Positions 2,240-23,844 of a stretch of DNA of 58,061 bases are shown here, in pieces. Position 1 is the stretch's first letter; each line of letters begins with the position of its first letter. The notes beneath the pieces are model-generated. The model searched no databases. It saw only the letters and a list, made by a program, of their open reading frames with translations, and was not told where the DNA came from. The stretch is from IMG/VR virus record IMGVR_UViG_3300036826_000378, positions 1 to 58,061 of that record. One strand, written 5' to 3'. This stretch comes from a virus (Duplodnaviria > Caudoviricetes). The translations under genes were made by a program, and so were the position numbers.

Positions 2240-2685
2240 GCCGCCCACACCAGCCGCTCCATCCGGCTCAGGGCCACCAGGGCGCTGAGCCTCGCCTCCT
2301 GGAGCCCGGTCACCTCGGCCATGCAGCTCGCGATCTGGCCGGAGGTGAGACGTGCCGGCAGCTCGTTCAGGACATCCATCAGGAGCGCGTCGGTGGCCCG
2401 GTGGAACTCGTCACGCAACCGCGCGATCGTCAGGGCCAGAGCGTTCAGCGTCAGCTCCAAGCCGTGCTCCTCGATCGCCAGCATCACGAGCTCGTCGTGG
2501 GTCTTCGTCCGGGCGTTTTCGCTCCGGACCGCGGAGTTCCGCAGGTGCTCCAGCCGGCTGTAGAGTCGGGTCCGCACGATCCCGATCTCGCGGTCCGCGC
2601 TCTGGGTTACCCGGTACATGACGATCAGGTTCTCGCGGTGGGTCAGAGCCATACTCCCCTCCTGGGCTATGGTGGCTGCGTTCAT
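2236..2685 (-). CDS. hypothetical helical protein, probable leaderless start (MNAAT...)
   Basis: ATG-AAC 6 nt after TATACT; alternative SD-led in-frame ATG at 2652. Confidence 0.75.
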   Translation of the reverse strand: MNAATIAQEGSMALTHRENLIVMYRVTQSADREIGIVRTRLYSRLEHLRNSAVRSENARTKTHDELVMLAIEEHGLELTLNALALTIARLRDEFHRATDALLMDVLNELPARLTSGQIASCMAEVTGLQEARLSALVALSRMERLVWAA

Positions 2686-2720
2686 AGGTTAAGTATATGC
2701 GCGTGCGCCTAGAATAGCAA
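2683..2720 (-). promoter_or_regulatory. early promoter P1 (box class I)
   Basis: TTGCTA-17-TATACT-6-ATGAAC; GGCGCACGCGCA abuts the -10. Confidence 0.8.
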
Positions 2721-2723
2721 CAC

Positions 2724-2757
2724 AAAAGAGAAAGGGCCGGCGGAGATCGCCGGCCCT
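2724..2757 (-). terminator. intrinsic terminator
   Basis: AGGGCCGGCG/CGCCGGCCCT stem followed by TTCTCTTTT on the minus strand. Confidence 0.8.
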
Positions 2758-2773
2758 CGTCACCACGTTGAGT

Positions 2774-3050
2774 TCAGGTTTGGTCGAGCGCCTTGAGGCG
2801 GTACCACTCCCGCTTGTGCTCGCACCACCGCAGCCCGCGGGGGCAGGTGCAGGTGAGGCCCTGGCCGTCGCGTAGCGGCTCGACAGTGCGGTACAGCGGC
2901 GCTTCGGAACGGGACAGGATGATGAGCTGGATGTGCTCGGGCTGCAACCAGCAGTGCTTGGAGAGGGGGCTCCAGGTTGGCCAGGTCCAGCTCGGGCGTC
3001 TCGGGCGGCGCCAGCGTGGGGTCGCCGTCCAAGACGCTGAGGCGGCGCAT
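2774..3050 (-). pseudogene. SWIM-type Zn-finger protein, frameshifted at G5 run 2965-2969
   Basis: removing one base joins MRRLSVLDG...LEP to LSKHC...CTCPRGLRWCEH; span is 3n+1. Confidence 0.65.
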
Positions 3051-3160
3051 CAGCGCGGCCCCATCGAAGCGAGGAAGAACGGCAGCGCCTCCGCGACCAG
3101 CTTGTCCTCCACCAGGATGACGAAGCCGCACACGATGACGAGCCGAATCCAATCGCCCAC
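3050..3160 (-). CDS. small hydrophobic peptide (MGDWIRLVIVCGFVILV...)
   Basis: GTG directly after upstream TAA; TGATG overlap downstream. Confidence 0.5.
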   Translation of the reverse strand: MGDWIRLVIVCGFVILVEDKLVAEALPFFLASMGPR

Positions 3161-3355
3161 TTACGCGGCCTGGGTGTTCTGGCTGGGCTGCCAGTAGCCG
3201 CCCGGCACGGGCACCCAGTAACCCTTGAGGGGGTGGTTGTAGTCGGAGACCCACTTGGCCATCCGGGGACGCGCGGCGTCGATGTCGCGCCGGGTCCGCT
3301 CCCATGCCTGGGCCAGCGTGATCTCGTCGGTCGTCTTCGGAGCAGTGGCGTTCAT
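3161..3355 (-). CDS. hypothetical protein, probable leaderless start (MNATAP...)
   Basis: ATG-AAC 6 nt after TACAAT. Confidence 0.7.
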   Translation of the reverse strand: MNATAPKTTDEITLAQAWERTRRDIDAARPRMAKWVSDYNHPLKGYWVPVPGGYWQPSQNTQAA

Positions 3356-3379
3356 GCTCCTATTGTAACGATACCGCTG
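3353..3379 (-). promoter_or_regulatory. early promoter P2 (box class II)
   Basis: CAGCGGTATCGT-TACAAT-6-ATGAAC; no clear -35. Confidence 0.7.
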
Positions 3380-3398
3380 CTGTCGTGCGCGTCGACGT

Positions 3399-3724
3399 TC
3401 AGATGTCGAAGAGGGATGGCTGCGTGTCGCCGGCCGCTGTTGGAGGGGCCGGGGTTGGCGCAGCCTGGCTGAGTGCCTTGAGCCCGGGTCCGTCCAGCAT
3501 CTTCAGGTGGCGCTCCACCTCGGCCATGTACGTCACGGCGCGCAGCCATGCGCACCGCTTCTTGTGGCGGCCGGTCCGCTCGTCCATGGGGGCAGGCATG
3601 ATCTCGGCGTGGCAGTACGTGCAGGTGCAGACGTACAGGTTCCCCCGTGCTGTTGGGGCTCGATCGCCACGAGGTCGCGGACCAGGACGTAGATCGACGG
3701 GAGCGGCTCCCGGTCCGCGGCCAC
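3399..3724 (-). pseudogene. Cys-rich protein with C-terminal QPSLF, frameshifted at C5 run 3642-3646
   Basis: GTG overlaps upstream TAG; adding one G joins MAADREP...QHGG to NLYVCTCTYCH...QPSLFDI. Confidence 0.6.
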
Positions 3725-4008
3725 TACGCGCGTCGCTCCTGATCCCCACGCGCCAGCAGCAACGCCAGCACGAGAGCCGCCACGCCGGCCGCCACGAGGA
3801 TGGCGACCAGGAAGGGCCGGGGCCAGGCCGCCAGCTCGCGCTCCAACCGCACCAGCCACGGCACCTGGGCCTGCGCCGCGAGCGCCGGAGCGTCCGGGCC
3901 CGGCTGGCCGCAGACCGGGCACCAAGTCCCCGGATGGAGCAGGGGCGGACGCTGGGTGAAGCAGCGAGGGCAGGCGATCGTCGGTTCAGGCTCGTTCAGG
4001 GGCACCAT
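3724..4008 (-). CDS. Zn-ribbon plus single transmembrane protein
   Basis: CPRC/CPVC pairs, hydrophobic C-terminal helix, SD AAGGAGG. Confidence 0.7.
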   Translation of the reverse strand: MVPLNEPEPTIACPRCFTQRPPLLHPGTWCPVCGQPGPDAPALAAQAQVPWLVRLERELAAWPRPFLVAILVAAGVAALVLALLLARGDQERRA

Positions 4009-4009
4009 C

Positions 4010-4369
4010 TCAGCTCGCCTCCTTCACCGAACGCTGGGCTTCCGCCAGCCGGCTCATGGCGTCCTCCAGCCGATCGAACTCCGGTCCGTCTGGCGAGACA
4101 TCGCTCATCCAGGCGTCCCAGGCCCTCAGCGTGCCCGCCACCGTGCGCACGAACGCCGAGCTGGCCGCCGCGGCGCGCAGAGCCATGACGAGGTCGCGCG
4201 AGCATCCGCCCGCCTCCGCGGCGTCGGAGTGCTGGTGGCCGCAGCTCCACACGATCTTGCTGCGGCCACTGCGCAGGACTCCGACCCACCACGAGAAGTG
4301 CTCGCCGGTGGGGTCGCCCGGGGGGCCGACCCTGAGAATGCCGGGGCGAATGCCGAGGACAGGCGCCAC
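4010..4369 (-). CDS. hypothetical protein
   Basis: tight packing with neighbours, high GC3. Confidence 0.65.
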   Translation of the reverse strand: MAPVLGIRPGILRVGPPGDPTGEHFSWWVGVLRSGRSKIVWSCGHQHSDAAEAGGCSRDLVMALRAAAASSAFVRTVAGTLRAWDAWMSDVSPDGPEFDRLEDAMSRLAEAQRSVKEAS

Positions 4370-4370
4370 C

Positions 4371-4787
4371 TCAGCTCTCCCTCGTCAGCGGCTCGATCCG
4401 CAGCAGGGTGATCGTGCCGGTCTGCCCGAACTGCTTCGCCAGCGCGTGAGCAGCGCAGCACCTCGCCGTGACGGTCTCCGCGTGGCCAGGCCCGATCTGG
4501 ACGCGCCAGGTGACGCGGAAGAGAGCCCGGTTCCCGGCGAGCCAGCACGTGACGTCGTCGCAGAGTTGAACGTTCCGGTACCTGGCCCCGACTCGGCGCC
4601 AGTAGTCCTCGGAGGACACCTGGAGCATCTCCAGCTCGTGGGTGCGACAGCGGAGGCTGGGAGCGTAGTCGGCCGTGAACGCGGTCGGGCAGGGGCTCTT
4701 GGGATCGTCCGCCAGCGGGCACGCGAAGTGTCGGAGTTGGGGCGGAGCGCTTGCCTTCATCTTCTCGTACAGCCGGAACCAGCTCAT
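4371..4787 (-). CDS. Cys-rich hypothetical protein (MSWFRLYEKM...)
   Basis: ATG 1 nt after the ftsK stop, SD GGAGG. Confidence 0.65.
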   Translation of the reverse strand: MSWFRLYEKMKASAPPQLRHFACPLADDPKSPCPTAFTADYAPSLRCRTHELEMLQVSSEDYWRRVGARYRNVQLCDDVTCWLAGNRALFRVTWRVQIGPGHAETVTARCCAAHALAKQFGQTGTITLLRIEPLTRES

Positions 4788-4788
4788 C

Positions 4789-7128
4789 TCAGCCCTCCAC
4801 TTCGAGCTGCTCCAGCAGCTCATCGACTTCGGCTCCACTCATCAGCACCTCGCGGGACTTCGAGCCCTGGTAGGGCCCGATCACCCGGTTGCGCTCCAGC
4901 ATGTCGATGATCCGACCGGCCCGCGAGTAGCCGACGTTGAACTTGCGCTGAACCCCTGAGACGGAAGCGGCGCCTTCGGCGGCCACCGCACGCGCCGCAC
5001 GCGCGAACAGCGGGTCCAGCTTGCGCTCTCCGTCCGGACCCAGCTCGGTGGCGGGCAGGAAGCCCTCCAGAACCGCCTCGTGGTAGGACGGCTCGCCCTG
5101 GCCCTTCCAGAAGTTGACCAGCGCCTCGATCTCCGGATCCGAGACGAAAGCACCCTGGATGCGGGTGGGCTTGCCCGCGTCGACCGGCAGGTAGAGCATG
5201 TCGCCGCGGCCCAGCAGCTTCTCGGCGCCGACCGAGTCCAGGATCACCCGGCTGTCCACCTGCGAGCCGACCGCGAACGCGATCCGGCTCGGGATGTTGG
5301 CCTTGATGAGGCCGGTGATGATATCGGTCGACGGGCGCTGAGTGGCGATCACGAGGTGGAGGCCAACCGCGCGCGCGAGCTGCGCGATCCGGCAGACCAG
5401 TTCCTCGATCTCGCCGGCCGCCACCATCATCAGGTCGGCCAGTTCGTCGATCACGATCACGACGTGGGGCAGCTCGCGAGCCCGCCGGACCTTCGCGCGC
5501 TCGTTGTAGACCGCGATGTTGCGGACGCCCTCGTGGTGCAGCAGCTTGTACCGCCGCTCCATCTCGGCGACGGCCCAGCGCAACGCGCCGGCCGCCTGAG
5601 CGGGTTCCACGATGACTGGAACGACGAGGTGCGGCAGATCGGTGTACTGCTGGAGCTCGACACGCTTCGGGTCGATCAGCACCATGCGGAGCTGGGCCGG
5701 GGTGAGCTGGAGCAGCAGGGAGCAGATCATTGCGTTGATCGCCACGCTCTTGCCCTGCCCGGTCGCGCCCGCGATCAGCAGGTGTGGCATCCGCGTCAGG
5801 TCGGCCGCGACACATGCGCCCGCGACGTCGTTCCCGATGGCCAACGGCAGGTAGTGGTTCCCACGCTGGAAGGCCGGAGAGGCAACGACCTCTCCGAGCG
5901 TGACAAGGGTGGCGGTCTTGTTGGGCACCTCGATACCGATAGCCTGCTTGCCCGGGATCGGCACCTCCAGGCGAATCGGCGAGGCCGCCAGCGCCAGCGA
6001 GAGATCGTTCTGAAGACGCACGATCTTGCCGACCTGGACTCCCGCGGCCGGCTGCACCTCGTACTGCGTGACCGCGGGGCCGGCGTTGACTCCCACGACC
6101 TTGCCGGCAGCCCCGAAGGTCTTCAGCGTCTCTTCGATGATCCGGACGTTCCGCTTGATCTCGTCCTGCATCCGGTTGCTCTTGGCGACGGCCGGCGTCA
6201 GGAGGGAGCCGGCATCCGGCCGGTCCCACTCGACATCCTCTGAGCCGTCGTCCCACTCGCCCACGATCGTTTCGATCGGAGTGTCGTCGTTGGCCTCACC
6301 CACCTCGGCCAGGTGCCGCTCGAAGGCGTGGTCTTCCGGCATCGGCGGGACGTTCTCGGCGTCGTCACCGGACTCCAAGTCCAGGGGAGTCTGCTCGACA
6401 GGCCCGGCAGGCCCGGCAGCCGGCGGGGCAGGCTGGGCCGGCTCTGGAGCCGGACGTGGAGTTGGCGCCGGAGCCGGCTGGCGCTGGGGGCGCAGGTTGT
6501 TCAGGCGCTCGCGCTCGCCCCACACCTTCTGGCCCGCCTCCACGACAGCCAGGAGGGGCTTGGCTAGGTCGCGCAGGCCCAGGAACGCCGCCAGCCCGAT
6601 GACGACCACCAGAAGCAGCGCCGTGATTCCGGGGCTGATGTGATCGACCAGGGGGCGCGTGAACCAGAAAGCGATCCAGCCGCCGAGACGCGGCGCTGGG
6701 ATGCTGAGCAGGCCCAACAGGGCGAACAGGACGATCGTCGCGCAGAGCACCTGCCAACTTGTCAGATTGATCCGCGACCACAGCAGCGCTACGCCGACGA
6801 AGATCATGCCGGGGAGCGCGATGAGCCACCCGATACCGAACAGGCCACGAGCGAGGTAACTCAGGTCGCGGAGGGCCGCGTAGTCCGACGGGAAGATGCT
6901 GACGATCGAGACGATGCCGACCAGCGCCAGCAGGACGCCGAGGATGCCGCGGGTCTGCTCGGGGGAGAGCCGGCCCAGCTCGGTGACGGCGTCTTCGATG
7001 ACGTCTCCGATCGCGCTCCCAATGCCGAGGAAGTCGAAGTGGTGGCCCCCCGCGCGCGAGGGCGCACGCCGTACCGTTGTGGTGCGCCGGGCCGGTTGCC
7101 GGCGCGAGGTTCGCCGCCGGGTGCTCAT
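4789..7128 (-). CDS. ftsK: DNA translocase FtsK/SpoIIIE, full length (TM region, Pro-rich linker, alpha, motor and gamma domains)
   Basis: Walker A GATGQGKS, IDPKRVEL, Walker B IVIDELADL, ATQRP, GAEKLLGRGDML, gamma domain VQRKFNVGYSRAGRIIDMLE; SD GAGGAGG before ATG 7128. Confidence 0.95.
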   Translation of the reverse strand: MSTRRRTSRRQPARRTTTVRRAPSRAGGHHFDFLGIGSAIGDVIEDAVTELGRLSPEQTRGILGVLLALVGIVSIVSIFPSDYAALRDLSYLARGLFGIGWLIALPGMIFVGVALLWSRINLTSWQVLCATIVLFALLGLLSIPAPRLGGWIAFWFTRPLVDHISPGITALLLVVVIGLAAFLGLRDLAKPLLAVVEAGQKVWGERERLNNLRPQRQPAPAPTPRPAPEPAQPAPPAAGPAGPVEQTPLDLESGDDAENVPPMPEDHAFERHLAEVGEANDDTPIETIVGEWDDGSEDVEWDRPDAGSLLTPAVAKSNRMQDEIKRNVRIIEETLKTFGAAGKVVGVNAGPAVTQYEVQPAAGVQVGKIVRLQNDLSLALAASPIRLEVPIPGKQAIGIEVPNKTATLVTLGEVVASPAFQRGNHYLPLAIGNDVAGACVAADLTRMPHLLIAGATGQGKSVAINAMICSLLLQLTPAQLRMVLIDPKRVELQQYTDLPHLVVPVIVEPAQAAGALRWAVAEMERRYKLLHHEGVRNIAVYNERAKVRRARELPHVVIVIDELADLMMVAAGEIEELVCRIAQLARAVGLHLVIATQRPSTDIITGLIKANIPSRIAFAVGSQVDSRVILDSVGAEKLLGRGDMLYLPVDAGKPTRIQGAFVSDPEIEALVNFWKGQGEPSYHEAVLEGFLPATELGPDGERKLDPLFARAARAVAAEGAASVSGVQRKFNVGYSRAGRIIDMLERNRVIGPYQGSKSREVLMSGAEVDELLEQLEVEG

Positions 7129-7247
7129 GTGGGATCTCCCTCCTCGGTGGTGGCTTCCATGTTGCCGCCCGGGACGAGACCGTGGGAGCGCGCGACCCAG
7201 CAGAGCTGGGCCCGAGCGGGAACCGCGGCCCTCGTGGTGGCGTTCAT
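7125..7247 (-). CDS. 40-aa leaderless ORF (MNATTR...) coupled to ftsK
   Basis: ATG-AAC 6 nt after TATAAT; its TGA overlaps the ftsK ATG (ATGA). Confidence 0.55.
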   Translation of the reverse strand: MNATTRAAVPARAQLCWVARSHGLVPGGNMEATTEEGDPT

Positions 7248-7271
7248 GAGGCAATTATAACTGTAGCGCTG
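7245..7271 (-). promoter_or_regulatory. early promoter P3, leftward (box class II)
   Basis: CAGCGCTACAGT-TATAAT-6-ATGAAC. Confidence 0.75.
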
Positions 7272-7288
7272 CAATTGTGGCGCCGGGG

Positions 7289-7328
7289 TTGCGCGAGCGT
7301 CAGCAGTACCGCTAAAATTGACCGCATG
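7289..7328 (+). promoter_or_regulatory. early promoter P4, rightward (box class II)
   Basis: TTGCGC-18-TAAAAT-7-ATGAAC with CAGCAGTACCGC before the -10. Confidence 0.8.
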
Positions 7329-7508
7329 AACGCCACCGCCACACGACGCCCGCGCAACGCTCCTCGCCGCCAGATCGTGCGGTGGGTCGAGCGGGGCGTG
7401 TCCTACGGCTGGATCGCGCCTTCGCAGCGTGCCGCCCTCCGGAGGGTGCGCGAGTTGCGGAAGGGCGTCGATCCGTACGCCGATTTCAGCCCGACGGTGC
7501 AGCCGTGA
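7326..7508 (+). CDS. small basic protein, leaderless (MNATATRR...)
   Basis: starts at P4; GTGA coupling downstream. Confidence 0.65.
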   Translation: MNATATRRPRNAPRRQIVRWVERGVSYGWIAPSQRAALRRVRELRKGVDPYADFSPTVQP

Positions 7509-9817: not shown

Positions 9818-10385
9818 GCCGGCGCCGCCCCGAGCCGCCCGTCCGGGAGACCGACTGCTGGCACCCGACGTCTCACCCGCACTGGGTGCGCATCGTGGCT
9901 GCTGGTGAGCCACGTCTCCTGGTCGTCTGCGGCTCCTGTGCACGACTCGCCAACCAGTTCGATCCGATCCCCTGTCGGGGCTGCGGTGGCTTCTCTCCGC
10001 GCATCGACGGAGAGTTCAACCACCCGCACGGCTACTACGGCAACGGCAGTCAGGTGGACGGCATGTGCACGAGCTGGTGTCACAAGTGCCTGGGGTCGCT
10101 GCCGATCCTGTGCAGCCAGTGCTTGGGCACCCCGCGCCAGGAGCACGTCTGCGGTGAGCCGACACGGCTCAGCGCCGGGGCCGGCGAGCGGCTCGCCTAC
10201 CGAGTGGCCTGGGCGGGCCTGGTCAAGGGGACCTCCTGGTACTCCGAGCGTCAGGAGTCCTGGTATGGGCTGCGCCACATGTTGGGCGCCTCCACGACGA
10301 GACCTTCGATCTCGTGTGGGTCGAGGGCGGCCGGCCGCGGTGGAGGCATCTGGGACCCAAGGGCTTCCAAGAGCTGTTGCCTTGA
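9814..10385 (+). pseudogene. multi-Cys Zn-binding protein, probable frameshift near 10284-10286
   Basis: CGSC, CRGC, CHKC, CSQC; high-GC3 frame RLHDETFDLVW...ELLP ends at 10385; span is 3n+2. Confidence 0.55.
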
Positions 10386-10414
10386 ACGGGGCACGCGGCT
10401 ACAATTAGAGCATG
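10377..10414 (+). promoter_or_regulatory. early promoter P5 (degenerate class I box)
   Basis: TTGCCT-17-TACAAT-6-ATGAAC; GGGGCACGCGGC. Confidence 0.8.
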
Positions 10415-10636
10415 AACGCTGCCACTGCCAACCGACTCGACCCGGACGCCGTTCTCCGCTACATGCGCTCCGTGGCCGCTGACCACGTGATTATCCATAC
10501 GGTCGATGCGACGCACCTGGCCGAGGATGCTTGTCAGCACTTCAACGCCTTCGGTCCGCCCGAGGAATACGAGGTGCCCGGGGAGTTCTTCGAGCTGGCC
10601 GCCCAGGTGGCCGATGAGTACGAGGCGAGGCAGTGA
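10412..10636 (+). CDS. small acidic protein, leaderless (MNAATANR...)
   Basis: starts at P5. Confidence 0.75.
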   Translation: MNAATANRLDPDAVLRYMRSVAADHVIIHTVDATHLAEDACQHFNAFGPPEEYEVPGEFFELAAQVADEYEARQ

Positions 10637-10894
10637 GCGCCCTGCCGGCCCGCTGGACCGTTCCTGCCATCACGCTCGGCGAGTCGCCCGAACACGAGTT
10701 GATGCGCGAGGATCTCTGCGCAGACGCCTGCCCGCGACTTCGGGGGTGGCCCGCACACGGAGCTGCCGCCGGCACGCTCTCTCTGGCCCTCCCTGGAGGC
10801 AGCAGAGGCGGCCATCGCGCCCACGCTCCAGCGCCTGGTGGGCACGGAAGCGGCCAAGCCCGAGCGGCTGATTCAGCGGAGCCTGTTCGATTGA
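10633..10894 (+). pseudogene. hypothetical protein ending QRSLFD, probable frameshift near 10712-10720
   Basis: after about codon 27 the coding-like frame switches; its TGA overlaps TTG of the next gene. Confidence 0.5.
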
Positions 10895-11160: not shown

Positions 11161-11201
11161 TTGCGCACGACGTCAGCACTACCGTTACAATAGGCGGCAT
11201 G
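11161..11201 (+). promoter_or_regulatory. early promoter P6 (box class II)
   Basis: TTGCGC-19-TACAAT-7-ATGAAC; CAGCACTACCGT. Confidence 0.75.
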
Positions 11202-11247
11202 AACGCGGGGCCACAAGCCCCACCACCACCGCCAAAGGAGTACGGAA

Positions 11248-11412
11248 GTGAAGCAGACGCACTCGACGCAGATGACCGGCGAGCAGGTCGCGCGCATCCT
11301 CGACACCCGCGACCGGAAGCTGGCCCGCAAGGCGCGGACGATCCAGTTCAAGGCGATCCGCAAGGTCACAGGCCAGGCCGAGCTGCGGGCGGCCGAGGGC
11401 CGGTGGTCGTAA
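11248..11412 (+). CDS. 54-aa basic protein (MKQTHSTQMTGEQVARILD...)
   Basis: SD AAGGAG 7 nt before GTG; followed by a terminator; below ORF-track cutoff. Confidence 0.7.
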   Translation: MKQTHSTQMTGEQVARILDTRDRKLARKARTIQFKAIRKVTGQAELRAAEGRWS

Positions 11413-11439
11413 GGCACGACTTCTTCCCCTCCCTACTGG

Positions 11440-11475
11440 CGGCGGGCCCCTCGATGGGGCCCGCCGTTTTCGTTT
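11440..11475 (+). terminator. intrinsic terminator
   Basis: CGGCGGGCCCC/GGGGCCCGCCG stem plus TTTTCGTTT. Confidence 0.85.
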
Positions 11476-11500
11476 GCAGGCTGCACGCCCAAGGAGAGCG

Positions 11501-11941
11501 ATGAGCGAGACCCGAGACCCGGAGATCAGGCAGCTTGCGGTGGAGCTGCTGAAACACCGCGGCTTCGCGGCCGCCGACGCCAAGCTGCCCGTCTGGAGCC
11601 CGAGTTGGCCGAAGCTGGTCATCGAAGGCTGGGCGTGGGGCGATGGCGACGAGGGCCACGTGCTGCTCGAACTGCACGTCACAATCGACGGTCACCCGGT
11701 AGCCGTCCTTGGTGATGGGGAGCTGTGGTGGCGGGACAGCGCGACCGAGACGACCCTGGAGGCGTTCGACGTCTTCGATCAGTTCCCGACCCTCTCCGCC
11801 GACGAGACCATGAAGGTGGAGAACGCGCTGGACCTGCTGTACGAGCGCTTCGACGGCGCCATCAAGCGGGTGACGCGCGAGCTGATGGACGACGTCCGCG
11901 AGCTGGCCGTTCGATGGGTGGCCGACGCCATGCGCCAGTAG
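11501..11941 (+). CDS. hypothetical acidic protein
   Basis: SD AAGGAG, high GC3. Confidence 0.75.
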   Translation: MSETRDPEIRQLAVELLKHRGFAAADAKLPVWSPSWPKLVIEGWAWGDGDEGHVLLELHVTIDGHPVAVLGDGELWWRDSATETTLEAFDVFDQFPTLSADETMKVENALDLLYERFDGAIKRVTRELMDDVRELAVRWVADAMRQ

Positions 11942-11967
11942 GCGCATGCGCGTATAATGACCGTATG
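11930..11967 (+). promoter_or_regulatory. early promoter P7 (box class I)
   Basis: ATGCGC-17-TATAAT-6-ATGAAC; GGCGCATGCGCG. Confidence 0.8.
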
Positions 11968-12219
11968 AACCGCCATCGCATTGACGATCGCACGTTGACC
12001 GTGGAGCCGCTGACCCAGGAGCTGCGTGCCTATGGCTTGCGTGGCCGGCCGATTCCGAGCGGGACTCCGGCTCGCCACGCGGTGGTCCAGCGGAGCGGCC
12101 AAGGCCGAGTGCTCTCTATCCGAGGCATCTCGATCGAGGCCGCTGACGCCGTGATGACCGCACGGGTCTGCGCCTCGAACGACGAGGGGCGCTACGTGCG
12201 GTCGGAGAGCCGATCGTGA
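11965..12219 (+). CDS. hypothetical protein, leaderless (MNRHRID...)
   Basis: starts at P7; GTGA coupling to the ATPase. Confidence 0.7.
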   Translation: MNRHRIDDRTLTVEPLTQELRAYGLRGRPIPSGTPARHAVVQRSGQGRVLSIRGISIEAADAVMTARVCASNDEGRYVRSESRS

Positions 12220-14915: not shown

Positions 14916-14954
14916 GGAGCGGCGGGGCAACGTGCCTCGCCGCTCCTTGCTTTT
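14916..14954 (+). terminator. intrinsic terminator overlapping the P8 -35
   Basis: GGAGCGGCGGGG/CCTCGCCGCTCC stem plus TTGCTTTT. Confidence 0.7.
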
Positions 14955-14984
14955 GCCGGCGTACGCGCCTACAATTGCCGTATG
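14947..14984 (+). promoter_or_regulatory. early promoter P8 (box class I)
   Basis: TTGCTT-17-TACAAT-6-ATGAAC; GGCGTACGCGCC. Confidence 0.85.
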
Positions 14985-15353
14985 AACTGCACCGCTCCGG
15001 GCCCGACCGCCACCATGATCGCGCTGACCGCGGACGAGATTCGCGAGCTGGCGCGCACATACAACGCCGAGTACCCCCAGGCGATGCCGTTGATCGACAG
15101 CGGTGAGCCGGAGCTGCTGGTCACCGTGCTCGCGGCCGACCGGATGGAGCGCACCTTCCGCGTGGTCGTGGATGCCGGCGTGCGGGCGTGCGACGAGGGC
15201 CGCGAGGTCTGGATCGGCTCGATGGATCCGGTGGTCGTCGTGAGCGGCCGCCGACCGCGCTGGGGCAACGTGTCCTGGCTCGTGAACGCCCAGCGCCTGT
15301 ACGGCTGGAGCGTCCGTGGCGCCCTGGTTCCGGTTCGGTGGGTGCACCGGTGA
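14982..15353 (+). CDS. hypothetical protein, leaderless (MNCTAP...)
   Basis: starts at P8. Confidence 0.75.
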   Translation: MNCTAPGPTATMIALTADEIRELARTYNAEYPQAMPLIDSGEPELLVTVLAADRMERTFRVVVDAGVRACDEGREVWIGSMDPVVVVSGRRPRWGNVSWLVNAQRLYGWSVRGALVPVRWVHR

Positions 15354-16080: not shown

Positions 16081-16085
16081 CGACC

Positions 16086-16123
16086 TTGACTCCAGTGGCG
16101 CACGCGCCTACAATTGGAGCATG
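16086..16123 (+). promoter_or_regulatory. early promoter P9 (box class I)
   Basis: TTGACT-17-TACAAT-6-ATGAAC; palindromic GGCGC-AC-GCGCC. Confidence 0.9.
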
Positions 16124-16786
16124 AACGCCACCGTCTTCGGTACACGCGAATCGCTGGGCCCGTATGGCTTCCCGCGCATGGTGGAAGTCGTGCCCGAGGG
16201 CAAGCTGGGAGCGGCGGAGGTCGAGCACTTTGAGGTCTCCGAGAGCGCCGCTCGCTTCACTGCCCTGAAGGGCGGTCGGAACTATGTACAGGACGGCAGG
16301 TACGCGAAGCTGCGCGTTGGCGGCGAACTCGTGATGAGCGACACTCGTTACGAACGGCTGTCGAACAGCGCAGTCGTCTACGCCGCCCACGGCCAGGCGC
16401 TGATCGCCGGCCTCGGGCTCGGCATGATCCTCCACGCCATCCTGGCGAAGGAGGCTGTCGAGCACGTCACGGTCGTCGAGCAGAGCCAGGACGTCATCGA
16501 CCTGATCGGCCCGACGCTCGCGCAGCACGCTGGCCGGCTGACGGTCACGCAGGGCGACATCTTCGAATGGAGGCCGGAGCGCGGCACGAAGTACGACTGC
16601 ATCTACTTCGACATCTGGGCCGAGATCAGCACCGATGCGCTGCCGGAGATGGCGAAGCTGCATCAGGCGTTCAAGGGCTTCAAGGCGCCTGGTGCCTGGA
16701 TGCAGAGCTGGGAGCGCGAGTCGCTCAAGGCGGACAAGCGTCGCGAGGAGCGCGAGCGCCGGCCGTTTGCAGGCTACCGGTGGTGA
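16121..16786 (+). CDS. spermidine-synthase-like class I SAM-binding protein
   Basis: VMSDT..E, ALIAGLGLG, VVEQSQDVI, GDIF, YDCIYFDIW. Confidence 0.8.
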   Translation: MNATVFGTRESLGPYGFPRMVEVVPEGKLGAAEVEHFEVSESAARFTALKGGRNYVQDGRYAKLRVGGELVMSDTRYERLSNSAVVYAAHGQALIAGLGLGMILHAILAKEAVEHVTVVEQSQDVIDLIGPTLAQHAGRLTVTQGDIFEWRPERGTKYDCIYFDIWAEISTDALPEMAKLHQAFKGFKAPGAWMQSWERESLKADKRREERERRPFAGYRW

Positions 16787-16800
16787 GGGAGGAGTAGTCA

Positions 16801-17037
16801 GTGGCCATCAAGTTCGAGGGAGTCAAGGCGGGCGACACGCTGTATGCCGTCTACCGCCAGAAGATGGGCTATACGACCATGAGCCGGACGGTCAGCATGC
16901 CCGTACGCGTCCTGGAGGTCGACTACGAGCGGGGCCAGGCGCTGCTCAGCCGCAACGGGAACCCGGCGCGATGGACAAGTCGGAGCCAGGTCGAGAAGCT
17001 GCGCCGCTCGCCGTACAAGCCGAAGGGCCGATCGTGA
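16801..17037 (+). CDS. small basic SH3/KOW-like protein
   Basis: SD GGAGGAG; VKAGDTLY pattern. Confidence 0.7.
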   Translation: MAIKFEGVKAGDTLYAVYRQKMGYTTMSRTVSMPVRVLEVDYERGQALLSRNGNPARWTSRSQVEKLRRSPYKPKGRS

Positions 17038-17306
17038 GCACCGAGAACACGGTCCCCGCTCGCTTCCTGTTCCCGGTGGACGAGACGGGACGGTACGCGC
17101 GCAAGGTGGTGGTGGTCGCCCAGGTCGAACGCGTGGTTACCTTCATCGTTCCCCCCGACCGAACGACTTCGGAGCAGGAGCGCATCGAGGCCCTGGCTCT
17201 GGCGCACGTGCACGAGGACATCGCGAGCGAGCTGCCGCCGGATTGGGTCGTTGTGCCAAGCGCCTACGGCCGGGTCGAGACGGTGCGGCCCGAGGCCGTT
17301 CGCTGA
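17034..17306 (+). CDS. hypothetical protein
   Basis: GTGA overlap. Confidence 0.65.
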   Translation: MSTENTVPARFLFPVDETGRYARKVVVVAQVERVVTFIVPPDRTTSEQERIEALALAHVHEDIASELPPDWVVVPSAYGRVETVRPEAVR

Positions 17307-17307
17307 G

Positions 17308-17520
17308 ATGGACGATCAGCAGCTTCAGGCCGAGCTGGCGCGCCGCTACGAGGCGTTGATGCAGGAGCTACCGCCAGAGGCCATCGAGGCGTTCGAGAAG
17401 GAATACTGGCCCGAGCATGACCTTCCGGGCAACACGTTGAACGGCTTCGTCCACTTCGTCGCGTCGTGGGCGTTCGTGGCGGGCTGGAAGGCTCATCGTG
17501 ACCACGAGAAGAGGGCCTGA
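17308..17520 (+). CDS. hypothetical protein
   Basis: ATG 1 nt after upstream stop; TGATG overlap downstream. Confidence 0.7.
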   Translation: MDDQQLQAELARRYEALMQELPPEAIEAFEKEYWPEHDLPGNTLNGFVHFVASWAFVAGWKAHRDHEKRA

Positions 17521-18492: not shown

Positions 18493-18873
18493 ATGCTCTG
18501 CCGCAACACGACGTGTCGGATCGGCAACGTGCCGGCCACCCGTCACATGCGCTGGCGCTACAAGAACGACCCGCCGGGCACCCGGCCGATCCCGGTCACC
18601 GAAGCGCACTTCTGCGACGACTGCGCGCACTCGATCCGCGGCCAGGCGGAGGCGCTCCTGCTGGACGAGCCGATGCCGGTGCAGCGGCTGGGCCACCTGG
18701 AGCTGGGAAGGCTCCACGCCCTGGCCGTAGAGGCGGACGACGACCAGCTCACGTACGAGGCACTGACGGCCGTCGGTCTGGACGGGCCCGAGGCCAACTT
18801 CCTGAGCACGCTGGCGCTGGCATGGCCGGCGATCCTGCGGCGGCTGGAGGGGCAGCCGAGGGGGGCGGAGTAG
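18493..18873 (+). CDS. Zn-finger hypothetical protein
   Basis: CRNTTC...FCDDC; SD AAGGAGG. Confidence 0.7.
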   Translation: MLCRNTTCRIGNVPATRHMRWRYKNDPPGTRPIPVTEAHFCDDCAHSIRGQAEALLLDEPMPVQRLGHLELGRLHALAVEADDDQLTYEALTAVGLDGPEANFLSTLALAWPAILRRLEGQPRGAE

Positions 18874-19182
18874 ATGGCGCCGGTGGATGTCGCGCTGGCT
18901 GGCCGCATCTGGCAGATCCTCGTCGAGGAGTGCCTGGCCAACACCGAGTGGCGTGACCCCTTCGTCCACTACGTGGTCGATCGGTCGCAGAACTCCCGGA
19001 TACTCGGCGACGCCATCGAGTTCACCTGTCCTGGTGGCCTCGGAACCTTCCACTGCACGCGTGACTGTCGCGACATGCGGGTCCACCCCTCGCCCACCGA
19101 GGAGTGCTTCCCCGAGATGCTGGAGCGGATCCGCCGGGCGAACGAACGGCTCGGCCACCTGGAGGCAGAACGATCCGAATGA
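18874..19182 (+). CDS. hypothetical protein
   Basis: abuts neighbours, high GC3. Confidence 0.7.
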   Translation: MAPVDVALAGRIWQILVEECLANTEWRDPFVHYVVDRSQNSRILGDAIEFTCPGGLGTFHCTRDCRDMRVHPSPTEECFPEMLERIRRANERLGHLEAERSE

Positions 19183-19415
19183 GCAGCACGGTGTACTGGT
19201 TCGAGCCGGGCGGCAAGGTGCTGCATACGAGCGCCAAGTGCCCCGATCTTCTCCGCGCGTTCACGGCTCTGGAGCGGGCCACGGGGAACCGGCCCCAAAT
19301 GCGTTCCTGCGATATGGAGGCGCCCGTCACCGGCAACGATGACCCGTACCCGCCGGATGAGCTGCTGTCCTGCCAGGTCTGCCCGCCCCGCGAGGAGCCA
19401 TCACTGCCACAGTGA
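19179..19415 (+). CDS. small Zn-binding protein (LH...C...CQVC)
   Basis: ATGA/GTGA overlaps. Confidence 0.65.
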   Translation: MSSTVYWFEPGGKVLHTSAKCPDLLRAFTALERATGNRPQMRSCDMEAPVTGNDDPYPPDELLSCQVCPPREEPSLPQ

Positions 19416-20554: not shown

Positions 20555-20907
20555 TGGAGCCGATCGAGGACGAGCTGCGGTTCATCCAGAACGTGCGCAG
20601 CCAGTGTGTGCACGTGGTGCTGCCGAGTGCGCTGGTTGAGGATGATGGACCCGCGGCGAAGATGTCCACTGAGGAGTTCGCCGCTGGGCTTCTGGAGGCA
20701 TGGGCGCGTCGGACGCCGGTCGTGTGCGGCAGGGCACTCCACACCAGCTCCATCATCCACATGGCCCAGGACCCGAACTTCGCTGAGTACCGATGGGTCA
20801 GGGCCTTTCGCGACGAGGATCTCTGCTGGGGCTGTCACCGCGGCCTTGGCGACCAGGCAGCCCTGGCCTTCCAGCACCCTCTGCCGGGCCAGGAGGATGA
20901 CGGGTGA
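20554..20907 (+). CDS. Cys/His-containing hypothetical protein
   Basis: TGATG overlap; H..VCG..LCWGC. Confidence 0.7.
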   Translation: MEPIEDELRFIQNVRSQCVHVVLPSALVEDDGPAAKMSTEEFAAGLLEAWARRTPVVCGRALHTSSIIHMAQDPNFAEYRWVRAFRDEDLCWGCHRGLGDQAALAFQHPLPGQEDDG

Positions 20908-21101
20908 TGCGGCAGGGACCTCCCCCGGAGGGGCGCGTCGTCAGCAAGACGTGGACCGCTCCTTGCAGGATCTGCAAACAACCGGTGAAGTGGTGGGAAT
21001 ACGGCAACGGGCGCTGGATGGACGCTCACCGCAGCAGGTTCGGTCGCCACCTGTGCCCCGGACCCCCTGAGCAGGAGGAAGAGACATCGCCACCCTCATA
21101 G
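20904..21101 (+). CDS. small Zn-binding protein (CRIC...HLC)
   Basis: SD AGGAGG, GTGA overlap. Confidence 0.65.
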   Translation: MMRQGPPPEGRVVSKTWTAPCRICKQPVKWWEYGNGRWMDAHRSRFGRHLCPGPPEQEEETSPPS

Positions 21102-21358
21102 TCGTCGGCAACTCCGATGGAGAAGTCGGACGCTGCGACGCGAAGTGCTACAACGCCCAGCACCAGGAATGCACGTGCGTCTGCGGTGGCCGGAACCATG
21201 GTGTCGGATTTCAGCAGGCCGTCCGGAACACCGCCGAGCTGGCCGAGCAGTGGTTCGACCAGGCGGACCCGAGCGGCGAGCTGAAGGACCGGATGCTCGC
21301 GATGCACGCGGACGTCATCGACTTCCCGCCCCAGCAGCCCCTACTTGACATAGCCTGA
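21086..21358 (+). CDS. Cys-rich protein (CDAKCYNA..ECTCVCGGRNHG), apparent ATC start
   Basis: SD AGGAGG then ATC; in-frame TGA at 21068; 90-aa high-GC3 frame absent from ORF track. Confidence 0.7.
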   Translation: MATLIVVGNSDGEVGRCDAKCYNAQHQECTCVCGGRNHGVGFQQAVRNTAELAEQWFDQADPSGELKDRMLAMHADVIDFPPQQPLLDIA

Positions 21359-21621
21359 CGTAGCAAAGCTCTGCCGGCTCGCCGGTAGTAGTACGTAACG
21401 GTACTGCTTGGAAAGGCCCCCGCATGGCTGTTATGTCTTTCGTTGTTCCGCAGACGTTGACGAGGGCTATATTGACTCGGCGGTTGACGATGCGAAGAGA
21501 GGTCCGGCGAGGACTGCCTTGGTGGGGCTGGCCTCGCTCGGCCAATTTCAGCAATAGCGCCGAAATAGGCTATGATGCACGCCATGCAGTACAACTCTCC
21601 GACACCACCAGGGAGCGCGCG
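21359..21621. promoter_or_regulatory. lower-GC intergenic control region with two class II-like boxes and TTGAC repeats
   Basis: AAGCAGTACCGT (minus, 21398-21409), CAGCAATAGCGC (21549-21560), TATGAT at 21571. Confidence 0.5.
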
Positions 21622-22056
21622 ATGCGCACCGTAACCCGCCGCCTGTTCGTACTGGTCGCGGCGGGCTTCTTCTTCATGACGCTCGGAGCGTGGCTGGTGG
21701 TCGATCAGCCAGCCCTGGCCGATCTCGTCTGGCGCAAGGTCTTCGTGTCGGCCTGGCTGAGCTGGATCAGCGCCCCCACCGTGTGGGTCGCACTGGCGCT
21801 GATGCGGAAGCGCTTGCGCATCGGATGGGTCGCCTACGTCATCTCCCAGATTGCCCTCTTCTCGGTCGGCGTCCTGCTGGGCCAGTGGGGCTTCTGCGCC
21901 ATCGGCACGGTCAACATGGGCCTGGCGGTGGAGGGCTGGCGTTCCTGGGGGAAGCCCACTCCGAACGAGCAGCGCCTGGAGCGAGAGCTGCGTGAGGCGC
22001 GTGACGAGATCGCCTGGCTGAGGGCCGAGCGTGATCAGGAGGCGCTCCCGGCGTGA
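21622..22056 (+). CDS. PnuC-like membrane protein with coiled-coil tail
   Basis: about 4 hydrophobic segments, GW....SQ and GWRSW motifs. Confidence 0.6.
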   Translation: MRTVTRRLFVLVAAGFFFMTLGAWLVVDQPALADLVWRKVFVSAWLSWISAPTVWVALALMRKRLRIGWVAYVISQIALFSVGVLLGQWGFCAIGTVNMGLAVEGWRSWGKPTPNEQRLERELREARDEIAWLRAERDQEALPA

Positions 22057-22667
22057 ACGTGGTTCGCGGAGCGCTGTGGGTCAACGACCTCGCCCAGCTC
22101 CCCCCGCAGGCGCAGCGCGTCGGAAGCTACGCCCTGGGGGAGGTGGACGATGGCGTGCGGACGGCCCATCTGGTCGCGGTGGCCGGCCTGCCCCCTGGCG
22201 AAGTCGAGGCGCGCCTGGCCGGCGGCTGCCGCGTCTTCGCGGCGTGGCACTGGCCGTCTGGCCAGCTCAGCGCCTGGACGTGGGTCTCTACCGGCGAGCA
22301 GTGGGTGACGGTGACGCAGTTGACCTATCGCTTCGCCGACGACGAGTGCTACGGCTGGAACGCAGACGTGCTCCCTGAGCACCGCGGCCATGCCCTGTTC
22401 ACCGCTGTGCTGCGGTTCGCCGGCCGGCGGATGAACGAACACGGCTGTCGCTTCATGTGGGCCGGCGCCCTGGATTCGAAGCTGGACAGCCAACGGTCGC
22501 TCGCCGCGGCGGGGTTCCGGCCGATCCTGCACCACGACGTCTACCTGGACCCGCCGCCCACCCGGCTGCGACTGCGGTGCGTGGAGTACGCCGATCCGCG
22601 GATGGCCGATCGCGCCCATTCGATCATCGAGCTTCCTGCCCAGGTCACCGTCTTCGCCGCCTCCTGA
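22053..22667 (+). CDS. GNAT-family acetyltransferase
   Basis: VLPEHRGHALF (acetyl-CoA motif A variant) and SQRSLAAAGF. Confidence 0.7.
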   Translation: MNVVRGALWVNDLAQLPPQAQRVGSYALGEVDDGVRTAHLVAVAGLPPGEVEARLAGGCRVFAAWHWPSGQLSAWTWVSTGEQWVTVTQLTYRFADDECYGWNADVLPEHRGHALFTAVLRFAGRRMNEHGCRFMWAGALDSKLDSQRSLAAAGFRPILHHDVYLDPPPTRLRLRCVEYADPRMADRAHSIIELPAQVTVFAAS

Positions 22668-22684
22668 CGAATCCACATCCCTTC

Positions 22685-22716
22685 GTGGCGGGGGCGGTTC
22701 GCGCCGCTCCCGCCAC
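22685..22716 (+). terminator. GC hairpin (terminator-like) upstream of P10
   Basis: GTGGCGGGGGCGG/CCGCTCCCGCCAC; weak U tract. Confidence 0.55.
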
Positions 22717-22724
22717 CCTCGGTC

Positions 22725-22763
22725 TTGCGCAGGGTCAGCAATACCGTTAAAATTGGCCCTGTG
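22725..22763 (+). promoter_or_regulatory. early promoter P10 (box class II)
   Basis: TTGCGC-17-TAAAAT-7-GTGAAC; CAGCAATACCGT. Confidence 0.8.
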
Positions 22764-23084
22764 AACGAAGCCACCAGCGCGCCAATGGCGCTGCCGCAGA
22801 TCCCTATCGACCCGGACGACTGCCTCTATAACCGCGCTGTCGTGAAGGCGGTCAACGCGATGCGCGCCGGCTCGAACGTCGAACTGACTCCTGGGCAGGT
22901 ACTGGCGCTGACCAAGGTGGCCCAGGAGGCTTGGGCCTACCTGGACCCGGACTACCCGGAAGGGCTGCCGCGAGATCCAGCGTTGGATCTCGCTTTTGCG
23001 GTGGTGTTCGGCTGCACCGTCGCCGAGGTGCAGGGCCGGATCGAGAGGTTCGAGGCTGCCCTGAAAGCCAAGGCGCGTGGCTGA
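22761..23084 (+). CDS. hypothetical protein, leaderless GTG start
   Basis: starts at P10. Confidence 0.7.
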   Translation: MNEATSAPMALPQIPIDPDDCLYNRAVVKAVNAMRAGSNVELTPGQVLALTKVAQEAWAYLDPDYPEGLPRDPALDLAFAVVFGCTVAEVQGRIERFEAALKAKARG

Positions 23085-23844
23085 TCTCGAACCCCTGGAG
23101 ACCTTCCTGGCCGAGCACCAGGACATGACGGTCGCTCAGGGATGCCCTGTCTGGGTCGAAGGGGAGAAGCACGAGGTCCGGGCCGTGTTGGAGTTGACGG
23201 TGGTCGTGCAGCCCATGCGGCCGCATGGCGACGAGGATCGCCGCGTCGTCGGCAAGGCGCGCGTTCAGGTCGATCCTGACGAGGCGAAGCTGGCCCCTGT
23301 TAAGGAGAAGGTTGGCTGGGGCCGGCAGCCGCGGAAGTCCAGCACGCCCCCAACGGCGTCTGAACCGCGGCCCGAGCCGGAGCCTCCGACCCCGCCTCTG
23401 CCGCCCCGTCCGTCCGTCCGTCCGCCGTCTGAACCCCCCTCTTCGAGTTCAGCATCGGACGCGCGGCCACTGCCCTCGCGGGTTGAGGAGCTGGTGGACG
23501 AGCTGCTGCGGGCCTGGTCGCGCGCCGACGAGCTGCGCACCGAGCTACGCCGCTACCGGCTGGCCATGCGCTCGGCGGCCTGCCTCGTGATGCTGCCGCC
23601 GGCACCGGTGGTCGTGCCGCCGCTGAACCGACGCACGCCGCGGAACGTCCGGGGGGCCGTGAGAGAGCTGATCCGCGTGTGGGCGCTGGAGGACGAGCTG
23701 GCCCAAGAGCTGCTGGAGCGCCGCCGGCTGATCCGTCGTGTCCATCGCAGAATCGCCGTCGCCCTTGCGATTACCGGCGCAAGCGCCTACAATCGTGGCA
23801 TGAACTGCGCCGCAACCGAGAAACGCGAGCGGGGCGCGGCCTGA
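23077..23844 (+). CDS. hypothetical protein with Pro-rich linker and two similar helical repeats
   Basis: VDELLRAW..DEL and VRELIRVW..DEL repeats; promoter P11 is embedded in its 3' end. Confidence 0.65.
   Translation: MADLEPLETFLAEHQDMTVAQGCPVWVEGEKHEVRAVLELTVVVQPMRPHGDEDRRVVGKARVQVDPDEAKLAPVKEKVGWGRQPRKSSTPPTASEPRPEPEPPTPPLPPRPSVRPPSEPPSSSSASDARPLPSRVEELVDELLRAWSRADELRTELRRYRLAMRSAACLVMLPPAPVVVPPLNRRTPRNVRGAVRELIRVWALEDELAQELLERRRLIRRVHRRIAVALAITGASAYNRGMNCAATEKRERGAA
23765..23802 (+). promoter_or_regulatory. early promoter P11 (box class I)
   Basis: TTGCGA-17-TACAAT-6-ATGAAC; GGCGCAAGCGCC. Confidence 0.85.

Follow-up and report, generated by a model that had tools for sequence, protein, structure and literature searches.

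Eleven promoters that run directly into RTGAAC in a siphovirus-like soil phage: probable copies of a portable, leaderless-type expression cassette

Why would eleven promoters of a single phage genome all point onto a start codon that is followed by the same second codon, AAC? The question is raised by IMG/VR virus record IMGVR_UViG_3300036826_000378 (Duplodnaviria; Caudoviricetes), whose 58,061 bp, complete in one contig, make up the window analysed here; the phage is called G000 below, and a second IMG/VR phage record used for comparison is called G001. An earlier note on this DNA had listed eleven sites at which a -10 hexamer lies just before RTGAAC, and had offered two kinds of explanation: a 5'-end signal under selection, serving leaderless initiation, start-site choice or a phage factor, or a mobile cassette of promoter plus start that recruits new genes. 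We consider it probable that the eleven sites are copies of a portable, insulated leaderless expression cassette, in which AAC is most likely kept for leaderless initiation. Throughout, "early" and "leaderless" are predictive labels, read solely from the spacing between the -10 hexamer and the RTG.

Each of the eleven coordinates listed in the earlier note proved to be the first base of an ATG (ten sites) or of a GTG (one site, at 22761), followed by AAC. A TAnnnT hexamer precedes all of them, at a gap of 6 nt at eight sites and of 7 nt at three. Dinucleotide shuffling of the genome (100 shuffles for each pattern) gave an expectation of 0.11 for TANNNT-N6-RTGAAC, against 8 observed, and of 0.06 for TANNNT-N7-RTGAAC, against 3 observed; none of the shuffles reached the observed number. 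A stronger test sets no downstream condition at all: the hexamer TA[CTA]A[AC]T occurs 11 times in the whole genome, both strands included, and all 11 occurrences are these sites, the sole strong -10 hexamers across the 58 kb. When any RTG is allowed at this distance (TANNNT-N6/7-RTG), 19 sites are found, with AAC as codon 2 in 11. The accompanying claim that most of the promoters have a TTG-type -35 stands for eight of the eleven, at a spacing of 17-19 nt; it fails at 11965, which has ATGCGC, and at 3355 and 7247, which have none. No Shine-Dalgarno (SD) sequence was found between the -10 and the RTG of the eleven cassettes, and position -1 is always a pyrimidine (C at seven sites, T at four). 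AAC is codon 2 in 11/11 cassette starts versus 2/79 other genes, the latter called with our own simple gene caller (Fisher p = 2e-12), and Asn accounts for 3% of all codons in G000. The ATGAAC stretch is AT-rich within a genome of 67.5% G+C.

The conserved unit is bigger than the earlier note had recognised, and its spacers sort into two types. Type A, GGCGC-NN-GCGCC adjoining the -10, holds only a 5-bp dyad and is found at 2685, 10412, 11965, 14982, 16121 and 23800. These sites correspond to cassette 1 (2680-2720 (-), TTGCTA-17-TATACT-6-ATGAAC, with GGCGCACGCGCA adjoining the -10), cassette 5 (10377-10417 (+), TTGCCT-17-TACAAT-6-ATGAAC), cassette 7 (11930-11970 (+), ATGCGC-17-TATAAT-6-ATGAAC), cassette 8 (14947-14987 (+), TTGCTT-17-TACAAT-6-ATGAAC), cassette 9 (16086-16126 (+), TTGACT-17-TACAAT-6-ATGAAC) and cassette 11 (23765-23805 (+), TTGCGA-17-TACAAT-6-ATGAAC). 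Type B, CAGCAnTACCGT, is found at 3355, 7247, 7326, 11199 and 22761, and its motif forms, together with the -10, a near-palindrome GTAnCGnTAC that overlaps the -10. To this type belong cassette 2 (3350-3390 (-), TACAAT-6-ATGAAC, spacer CAGCAGCGGTATCGT), cassette 3 (7242-7282 (-), TATAAT-6-ATGAAC, with a B-like spacer), cassette 4 (7289-7331 (+), TTGCGC-18-TAAAAT-7-ATGAAC), which makes a divergent back-to-back pair with cassette 3, cassette 6 (11161-11204 (+), TTGCGC-19-TACAAT-7-ATGAAC) and cassette 10 (22725-22766 (+), TTGCGC-17-TAAAAT-7-GTGAAC). Predicted hairpins lie just upstream of some cassettes: a terminator hairpin with an 11-bp stem at 2732-2758 (-), ahead of cassette 1; a terminator hairpin with a 14-bp stem at 14916-14946 (+), whose T-tail extends into the -35 of cassette 8; and a hairpin with a 14-bp stem (~-31 kcal/mol) at approximately 22685-22716 (+), ahead of cassette 10.

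The composition of the predicted transcripts is biased beyond AAC. The codons that follow are GCC or TGC and then of ACC/GCC type, so that the products begin MNAT, MNAAT, MNCT or VNEAT. Between +7 and +24, A+C amounts to 65% and G to 25% in the cassettes versus 53% and 33% in 58 SD-led G000 genes (p ~1e-5 and ~1e-4, respectively). The calculated folding energy of the first 40 nt is -6.3 kcal/mol for cassettes versus -9.9 kcal/mol for SD-led genes (p = 4e-5). At the protein level, Ala and Thr together make up 46% of residues 3-8 in the cassette open reading frames (ORFs) versus 17% in SD-led genes.

The earlier note had taken each RTG as the start of a gene. This was borne out at about seven of the eleven sites, where coding composition begins with the first codon: 3355 (64-aa ORF, 3161-3355), 7326 (60-aa ORF, 7326-7508, with a GTGA overlap between its stop and GTG 7505 of the gene that follows), 10412 (74-aa ORF, 10412-10636), 11965 (84-aa ORF, 11965-12219, its stop likewise overlapping GTG 12216, the start of a 494-aa gene), 14982 (123-aa ORF, with a cassette-bearing ortholog in two relatives), 16121 (221-aa methyltransferase-like gene) and 22761 (107-aa ORF, its GTG start kept in both relatives). 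The other four do not simply start the gene behind them. At 7247(-), a leaderless-type upstream ORF (uORF) of 40 codons (7125-7247 (-)) ends in a TGA that overlaps ATG 7128 (ATGA) of an FtsK/SpoIIIE-like gene having its own GAGGAGGGAG SD. At 23800, a leaderless-type uORF of 14 codons (23800-23844 (+)) ends as TGATG on the main ATG 23844 of the gene at 23844-24329; its length and its TGATG junction are kept in all three relatives. Both fore-cistrons hold the SD of the main gene and stop on the main start codon. At 2685(-), the RTG opens an in-frame extension of 11 codons (MNAATIAQEGS, 2652-2685 (-)) that contains the AGGAGGGG SD for ATG 2652. At 11199, finally, the RTG is out of frame with the real gene: its frame is non-coding by composition (G+C at third codon positions 0.59), and the real gene, GTG 11248-11412, lies behind AAAGGAG. 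With two of these starts opening short uORFs, a third lying out of frame and a fourth heading an in-frame extension, RTGAAC belongs to the promoter unit and not to the gene. The out-of-frame ORF of cassette 6 (11199-11504 (+)) begins MNAGPQAPPPPPKEY, with five consecutive prolines, a candidate point of ribosome stalling, just upstream of the SD-led GTG 11248.

A twelfth leaderless-type site, absent from the list in the earlier note, lies at 21571-21634 (+), where TATGAT-7-ATGCAG opens a 16-codon uORF ahead of the SD-led ATG 21622. The motif upstream of it, CAGCAaTAGCGCCGAAATAGGC, is unlike types A and B. The site is kept in two metagenomic relatives described below (L548 and L550), and the uORF of L550 ends in TGATG.

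The same arrangement recurs in G001, a record of 89,827 bp and 68% G+C. TANNNT-N6/7-RTGAAC has 21 matches there versus 0 for a reversed-pattern control, and 12 of the 21 cassettes form an array with one promoter per 300-980 bp. Position -1 is again always a pyrimidine (T at 13 sites, C at 8). When the promoter alone was sought, with no downstream condition (TTG-16/19-TA[ACT][AG][ACT]T, n = 20), RTGAAC followed at 16 sites, ATGAGC at one and no RTG at three; a further type-B-like site has ATGGGC. The ORF opened by one GTGAAC cassette of G001, at 18897 (-), has just 16 codons and no evident coupled gene, and may specify a small peptide or an RNA; the site is kept in the relative L549 with a 92% local score.

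G000 and G001 share no protein at E<1e-5 outside one 447-bp stretch. This module (10286-10732 (+) in G000, 73622-74068 in G001) is 98.7% identical between phages that are otherwise unrelated, and it reaches from the end of an upstream gene, through cassette 5 and its 74-aa ORF, into the start of the gene that follows. The module begins within the final 40 codons of the upstream gene and ends ~100 nt inside the following one; a G001-like version of it is present on a metatranscriptome contig (run X3). The proteins behind the cassettes had been described as unrelated, and all-against-all BLASTP of the 32 cassette ORFs from both phages agreed, giving one true pair and one marginal hit. One of seven cassette products matched PHROGs (a methyltransferase), and one further product gave no match in a Pfam scan.

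Both spacer types are present in G000 and in G001. Occurring as they do in two phages with no shared proteins, they may be host-factor binding sites or marks of a temporal class. The promoter types common to the two phages reflect common host machinery, exchange of cassettes, or both. A shared phage factor, which the earlier note had put forward as one reason for AAC, looks unlikely, because the two lineages have no protein in common outside the 447-bp stretch.

When metagenomes were scanned with a single cassette pattern, six stretches were obtained, all relatives of G000 or G001. L548 and L550/L553 are relatives of G000 (72-89% identity, syntenic with 12.9-31.2 kb of the window), and L549, L551 and L552 are relatives of G001 (74-95%). 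In the six stretches RTGAAC follows 29/29 hexamers that have TTG at 17 nt, a count in which eight are forced by the search pattern and three sites are common to L551 and L552. A TTG -35 at 17 nt is found in at least 47 of the 59 non-identical cassette sites, and each of the four G000 promoters that fall within the covered region has an intact ortholog in both relatives. Across 24 ortholog pairs, gathered with a pattern that requires AAC, AAC changes at 0/72 positions. Differences in the same pairs amount to 16% in the discriminator, 18% at -10 positions 3-5, 21% in the spacer, 18% at +7..+9 and 44% at +13..+30. At a neighbour-like rate of ~18%, ~13 changes in AAC would have been expected. That AAC is kept at every orthologous promoter while neighbouring positions vary supports purifying selection on it, as the idea of a selected signal had implied.

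We also asked how the cassette compares with leaderless-type starts of bacteria, since AAC at codon 2 might simply be the host norm for leaderless genes, a case that the earlier note had named as refuting its proposal. Neither genomes nor published data lent this support, for a comparison that used Actinomycetota, a group that may not be that of the host. None of 401 Actinomycetota genomes, which are several megabases in size, has more than 7 matches of TAYRAT-N6-ATGAAC, and 141 have one or more; three unpublished genomes, each with a single match, are part of this tally. Five genomes taken in the order of the list gave 46 TAYRAT-N6-ATG sites, none of them followed by AAC, ten of the 46 coming from an unpublished genome; in five genomes chosen for having AAC hits, AAC follows 10/112. 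For mycobacteria, Shell et al. report that nothing past the start codon is enriched, either in leaderless genes or in their selection assay (PMC4633059).

The suggestion of a mobile promoter-plus-start cassette agrees well with the way in which relatives differ: they keep the promoter and ATGAAC, with one to four further codons, while the gene behind is replaced. In 4/13 G001/L549 pairs, homology covers the upstream DNA and the promoter, and unrelated DNA occupies +10 to +200 (local score <=0.08). A single locus has three different genes in G001, L549 and L551, all of them behind the same promoter and ATGAACTG. The converse, in which the upstream DNA is replaced and promoter and gene are retained, is seen in at least four pairs. 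Homology between relatives ends at +8 to +18, right after the cassette, and unrelated genes lie beyond. At cassette 9, L548 and L553 have ATGAACGCCACCATTCC (MNATIP) in common and then diverge, the gene being a methyltransferase in L548 and G000 and a 256-aa GmrSD_N-domain protein in L553. Between G000 and L553 only a 51-bp island (16082-16132, 90% identity) is conserved at this cassette, flanked by unlike DNA on both sides; like the 447-bp promoter-plus-gene module, it is common to otherwise unlike DNA. The core of the methyltransferase family begins ~15 residues into the G000 protein, and among homologs other than the query an MN start is found in 3/119 and MNAT only in the closest (82% identity). 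L553 thus has at 1385-2152 the GmrSD_N (DUF262) gene where window 16121-17516 has the methyltransferase, which looks like a swap of a DNA-modification gene for one of restriction type.

Each cassette consists of a housekeeping-sigma-type promoter (TTGCnn, 17-19 nt, TAyAAT) with one of the two spacer types and a 6-7-nt discriminator, preceded in some copies by a predicted terminator hairpin. We hypothesize that transcription would be placed on the first base of RTG-AAC and would then run through a few C/A-rich, G-poor codons. Because it would start on the first base of the RTG, the mRNA would be leaderless and translated from its 5' end, with 70S-type leaderless initiation at the RTG. In an in-frame fusion, the opening 2-6 codons of an early, unrelated and mostly orphan protein would come from the cassette. 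Placed out of frame ahead of an SD-led gene, it would instead create a short leaderless uORF halting on the main start codon, so that ribosomes could be handed on to the main gene by translational coupling. Since the copies are alike, they could also serve as recombination joints: relatives differ in that DNA immediately before or after a cassette has been replaced, and a module of promoter and gene has moved recently between two unrelated phages.

Within such a cassette, the ribosome-binding determinant that stands in for an SD would most likely be the first transcribed bases, namely AUG, A-A-C and the unstructured G-poor stretch. We propose that AAC and the C/A-rich stretch are kept because, where there is no SD, these bases decide ribosome loading. 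AAC itself is, in our reading, the one codon that begins with AA, avoids G and fits the preference of the genome for C-ending codons. Leaderless translation is enhanced by downstream CA repeats (PMC9031893), and bacterial genes generally favour adenine at the fourth position (PMC5850271). We advance only tentatively the stronger proposal that 5'-AUGAAC and the G-poor C/A-rich stretch are a true determinant of leaderless initiation in the bacterium that these phages infect, exploited as the 3' edge of a gene-capturing cassette. If true, this would be the first signal beyond the start codon in an actinobacterium-type system, and it would describe a recombination-based form of gene capture in which the "attachment site" is a promoter plus the first two to six codons and the outcome is an in-frame fusion.

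Several other explanations of AAC have to be weighed against leaderless initiation. The one that survives best, which we nonetheless regard as unlikely, holds that AAC is functionless and belongs to a homology patch, reaching from the -35 to about +9, which persists by descent and gene conversion, only patch-bearing genes being in circulation. The position of the breakpoints directly past the conserved stretch is as such a patch would have it, and so is the movement of a module between unrelated phages. Lineage-specific discriminators, TCGAGT/TCGAAT, are found in 20/59 non-identical sites, all of them in G001 and its relatives, and the promoter-early stem-loop (PeSL) cassettes of T4-type myoviruses work likewise (PMC2839356; PMC4122927). 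Conversion would, however, homogenise the discriminator and the spacer too. In G000 these vary widely between copies and by 16-21% between orthologs, and AAC never does; their variation therefore counts against such a patch. AAC is, moreover, common to two lineages with different discriminators.

ATGAAC could also act in the DNA, as a promoter element whose initially transcribed bases fix a single start or ease promoter escape; an exact start would be essential, because the first transcribed base is also the first base of the start codon. The invariance of ATGAAC equals that of -10 positions 1, 2 and 6, as expected of a promoter element, and the fixed pyrimidine at -1, the AT-richness of the stretch and the retention of ATGAAC at 11199, where the RTG does not open the gene, are in line with it. 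Yet cassette-type promoters with ATGAGC, with ATGGGC or with no RTG at +1 exist, and the compositional bias reaches +24 in the form of low RNA folding and G depletion, which suggests an effect at the level of RNA. On balance we think a purely DNA-level role improbable.

A bound factor accounts for the data less well still, and we rate it as very unlikely. ATGAAC would here be an operator half-site recognised by a regulator, or the mark by which a host or phage RNA-binding factor identifies a set of genes. The spacers do contain motifs that resemble binding sites, GGCGC-NN-GCGCC in type A and the GTAnCGnTAC near-palindrome in type B, but ATGAAC is the same behind both spacer types, is non-palindromic and has no partner half-site at a fixed distance. 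Nor do the two phage lineages have in common any protein that might regulate both, which leaves a host factor as the possible candidate.

That the Met-Asn N-terminus, its methionine retained and Ala, Thr or Cys coming next, is a stability, processing or targeting signal, or that AAC is the usual leaderless second codon of the host, is hardly credible, despite the Ala and Thr content of residues 3-8 and the in-frame 3-nt length differences after AAC (MNAT, MNAAT, VNEAT): the same start heads uORFs of 14 and 40 codons as well as a frame whose composition is non-coding, TGC, which specifies a rare residue, is a frequent codon 3 (22/59), and the Actinomycetota and mycobacterial comparisons above speak against a host norm. 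Three further readings were dropped by eye, their partner motifs being absent: GAAC as part of a LexA/SOS box, N-x-T as a signal of N-glycosylation type, and a -10-like pause element within ATGAAC.

A number of observations weigh against a portable leaderless cassette in which AAC is kept for initiation. The absence of change in AAC is meaningful only because no orthologous promoter lacking AAC was found, the sites having been collected by way of AAC. The wobble base of AAC is uninformative, because the ratio of AAC to AAT is 475:46 in G000. The conserved G000 site TATGAT-7-ATGCAG has another codon 2, and G001 has cassette-like promoters with ATGAGC, with ATGGGC and without an RTG; these exceptions in both phages indicate that AAC is preferred, not obligatory. 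Hairpins of <=-25 kcal/mol lie directly upstream at just 3/11 G000 and 5/21 G001 sites. The sole RNA run consists of soil metatranscriptome contigs, which cannot show transcript starts. Lastly, a requirement at codon 2 would be unusual, because Shell et al. saw nothing beyond the start codon in the mycobacterial data cited above (PMC4633059).

The nearest described system is that of the PeSL cassettes. These (PMC2839356; PMC4122927) resemble the cassettes of G000 in that many near-identical, strong housekeeping-sigma early promoters stand before orphan genes in plastic regions. A terminator-like stem-loop often accompanies the promoter in PeSLs, and in G000 hairpins lie upstream of some copies. 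Both are also found at the insertion, deletion and replacement junctions that separate close relatives, which suggests that both are insulated expression units and recombination joints at once. PeSLs differ in ending with an SD and a start codon (PMC2839356), whereas the present cassette has no SD and ends in RTGAAC. Because it ends in a start codon and a fixed codon 2, swapped genes would be joined in frame, inside the coding sequence. PeSLs belong, furthermore, to myoviruses of Gram-negative hosts and the present cassettes to a siphovirus-like phage of a probable high-GC Gram-positive host, in which a strong hairpin accompanies a minority of the copies.

Start-associated sequences (SAS) of Cluster K mycobacteriophages reportedly lie upstream of the start codon and include the ribosome-binding site. 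They too are a short conserved motif tied to the starts of a subset of unrelated phage genes; the present cassettes lack an SD in the gap from -10 to RTG, and what they conserve is the start codon together with codon 2. Among other mycobacteriophages, those of Cluster O have SigA-like promoters predicted to be leaderless, such as PL1/PR2 and PL2, and a divergent back-to-back pair (PMC4351075) comparable to that at 7247(-) and 7326(+). Of the eight or nine promoters of Cluster O, three are leaderless, whereas here all 11 strong promoters are of leaderless type and all have AAC, and the accessible part of PMC4351075 describes neither a conserved second codon nor mosaicism at cassettes.

A synthetic leaderless bicistronic design for C. 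glutamicum required translation of the fore-cistron, an SD inside it and a stop/start overlap of 1 nt (PMC10367133). The uORFs at 7247(-) and 23800 have the same layout, with a leaderless-type fore-cistron that contains the SD for the main gene and ends on the start codon of that gene (ATGA and TGATG). They differ from the design in being natural, phage-borne and conserved across relatives, and their function is predicted from layout. Natural small leaderless ORFs that control downstream genes are treated in the review PMC9031893. In halovirus HF2, intergenic repeats supply promoters to many viral genes (PMC8707807); these are archaeal, TATA-type promoters, and a fixed start and second codon are not described in the part of that paper available to us. 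Nothing found in the open-access literature searched describes an AAC or second-codon rule, leaderless promoter cassettes of phages, or genes swapped in frame at a promoter-start unit.

The cassettes bear on the open question of what, beyond a 5' AUG, makes a good template of a leaderless mRNA: two unrelated phage lineages hold the same second codon at ~60 promoters while neighbouring non-core positions drift. They also illustrate a way in which phages with high-GC hosts may reshuffle early orphan genes, by means of a unit that comprises the promoter, the start codon and the first codons and that has natural "bicistronic" variants for genes keeping their own SD. Compact, insulated leaderless parts of this kind could serve actinobacterial engineering.

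The cassette was also sought more widely. IMG/VR scans with four cassette patterns gave, among the matches listed, multiple copies only in G001, and the listed matches to the type-B pattern were, besides G001, a coding sequence. BLASTN of two 67-nt cassettes against phage records returned only chance-level hits (E >=2). Two phages of 55% GC (G405 and G406) were rejected as further members of this system: they have a few TATACT-N6/7-ATGAAC matches, equally high controls, many leadered promoters and other second codons. In the genome collection, TTGC-N19-TACAAT-N6-ATGAAC had, among the matches listed, only single, chance-like ones that pointed to no host, and two Actinomycetota contigs with look-alike 18-mers were unrelated. 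In one Arachnia propionica assembly (G003, the genome holding L244), ten copies of the 18-mer TACAATGGGGTCATGAAC were found, on 10 contigs; this is probably a repeated element with a leaderless-type start. On a bacterial contig (L304, 2035-2090), two divergent TACAAT-N6-ATGAAC starts share a long palindrome (CCCTGTCAGG..TTGCGCGCAA..CCTGACAGGG), an arrangement that, judged from its sequence, resembles a repressor-controlled divergent leaderless pair.

G000 is probably a siphovirus-like soil phage of a high-GC Gram-positive bacterium. Its encoded proteins include a major head protein, a tape measure protein, tail proteins and a GH25+LysM endolysin, and the virion genes, the tape measure protein among them, are of siphovirus-like type. 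Genes run leftward from ~7.2 kb and rightward from 7.3 kb to the genome end. The endolysin is nearest to Arthrobacter phage endolysins (31-34% identity), which hints only at a Gram-positive host; together with the SigA-like promoters and the GTG leaderless-type starts, it leads us to infer a high-GC Gram-positive one. A search of 50,697 phage records with G000 DNA gave no match, the major capsid protein has <31% identity to every phage record compared, and no close relative of it was found in IMG/VR. Parts of the G000 region were found, all as contigs, in two soil DNA runs and one soil metatranscriptome.

Some further genes of the window deserve mention. The gene behind the 40-codon leaderless-type uORF (window 4789-7128 (-)) appears, from its predicted product of 779 aa, to be a full-length FtsK/SpoIIIE-like gene with alpha, motor and gamma domains; its relatives were tried as a route to the cassette, and the 74 IMG/VR loci obtained were without one. 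ARAGORN called a 95-nt tRNA-Ser(CGA) at window 31823-31917 (-), antisense within the rightward head-gene region, and this call is doubtful. A further methyltransferase gene, for an N6_N4 DNA methylase, lies at window 912-2153 (-), and a class I S-adenosylmethionine-dependent methyltransferase of 384-390 aa is encoded at window 27608-28780 (+), directly upstream of the head genes.

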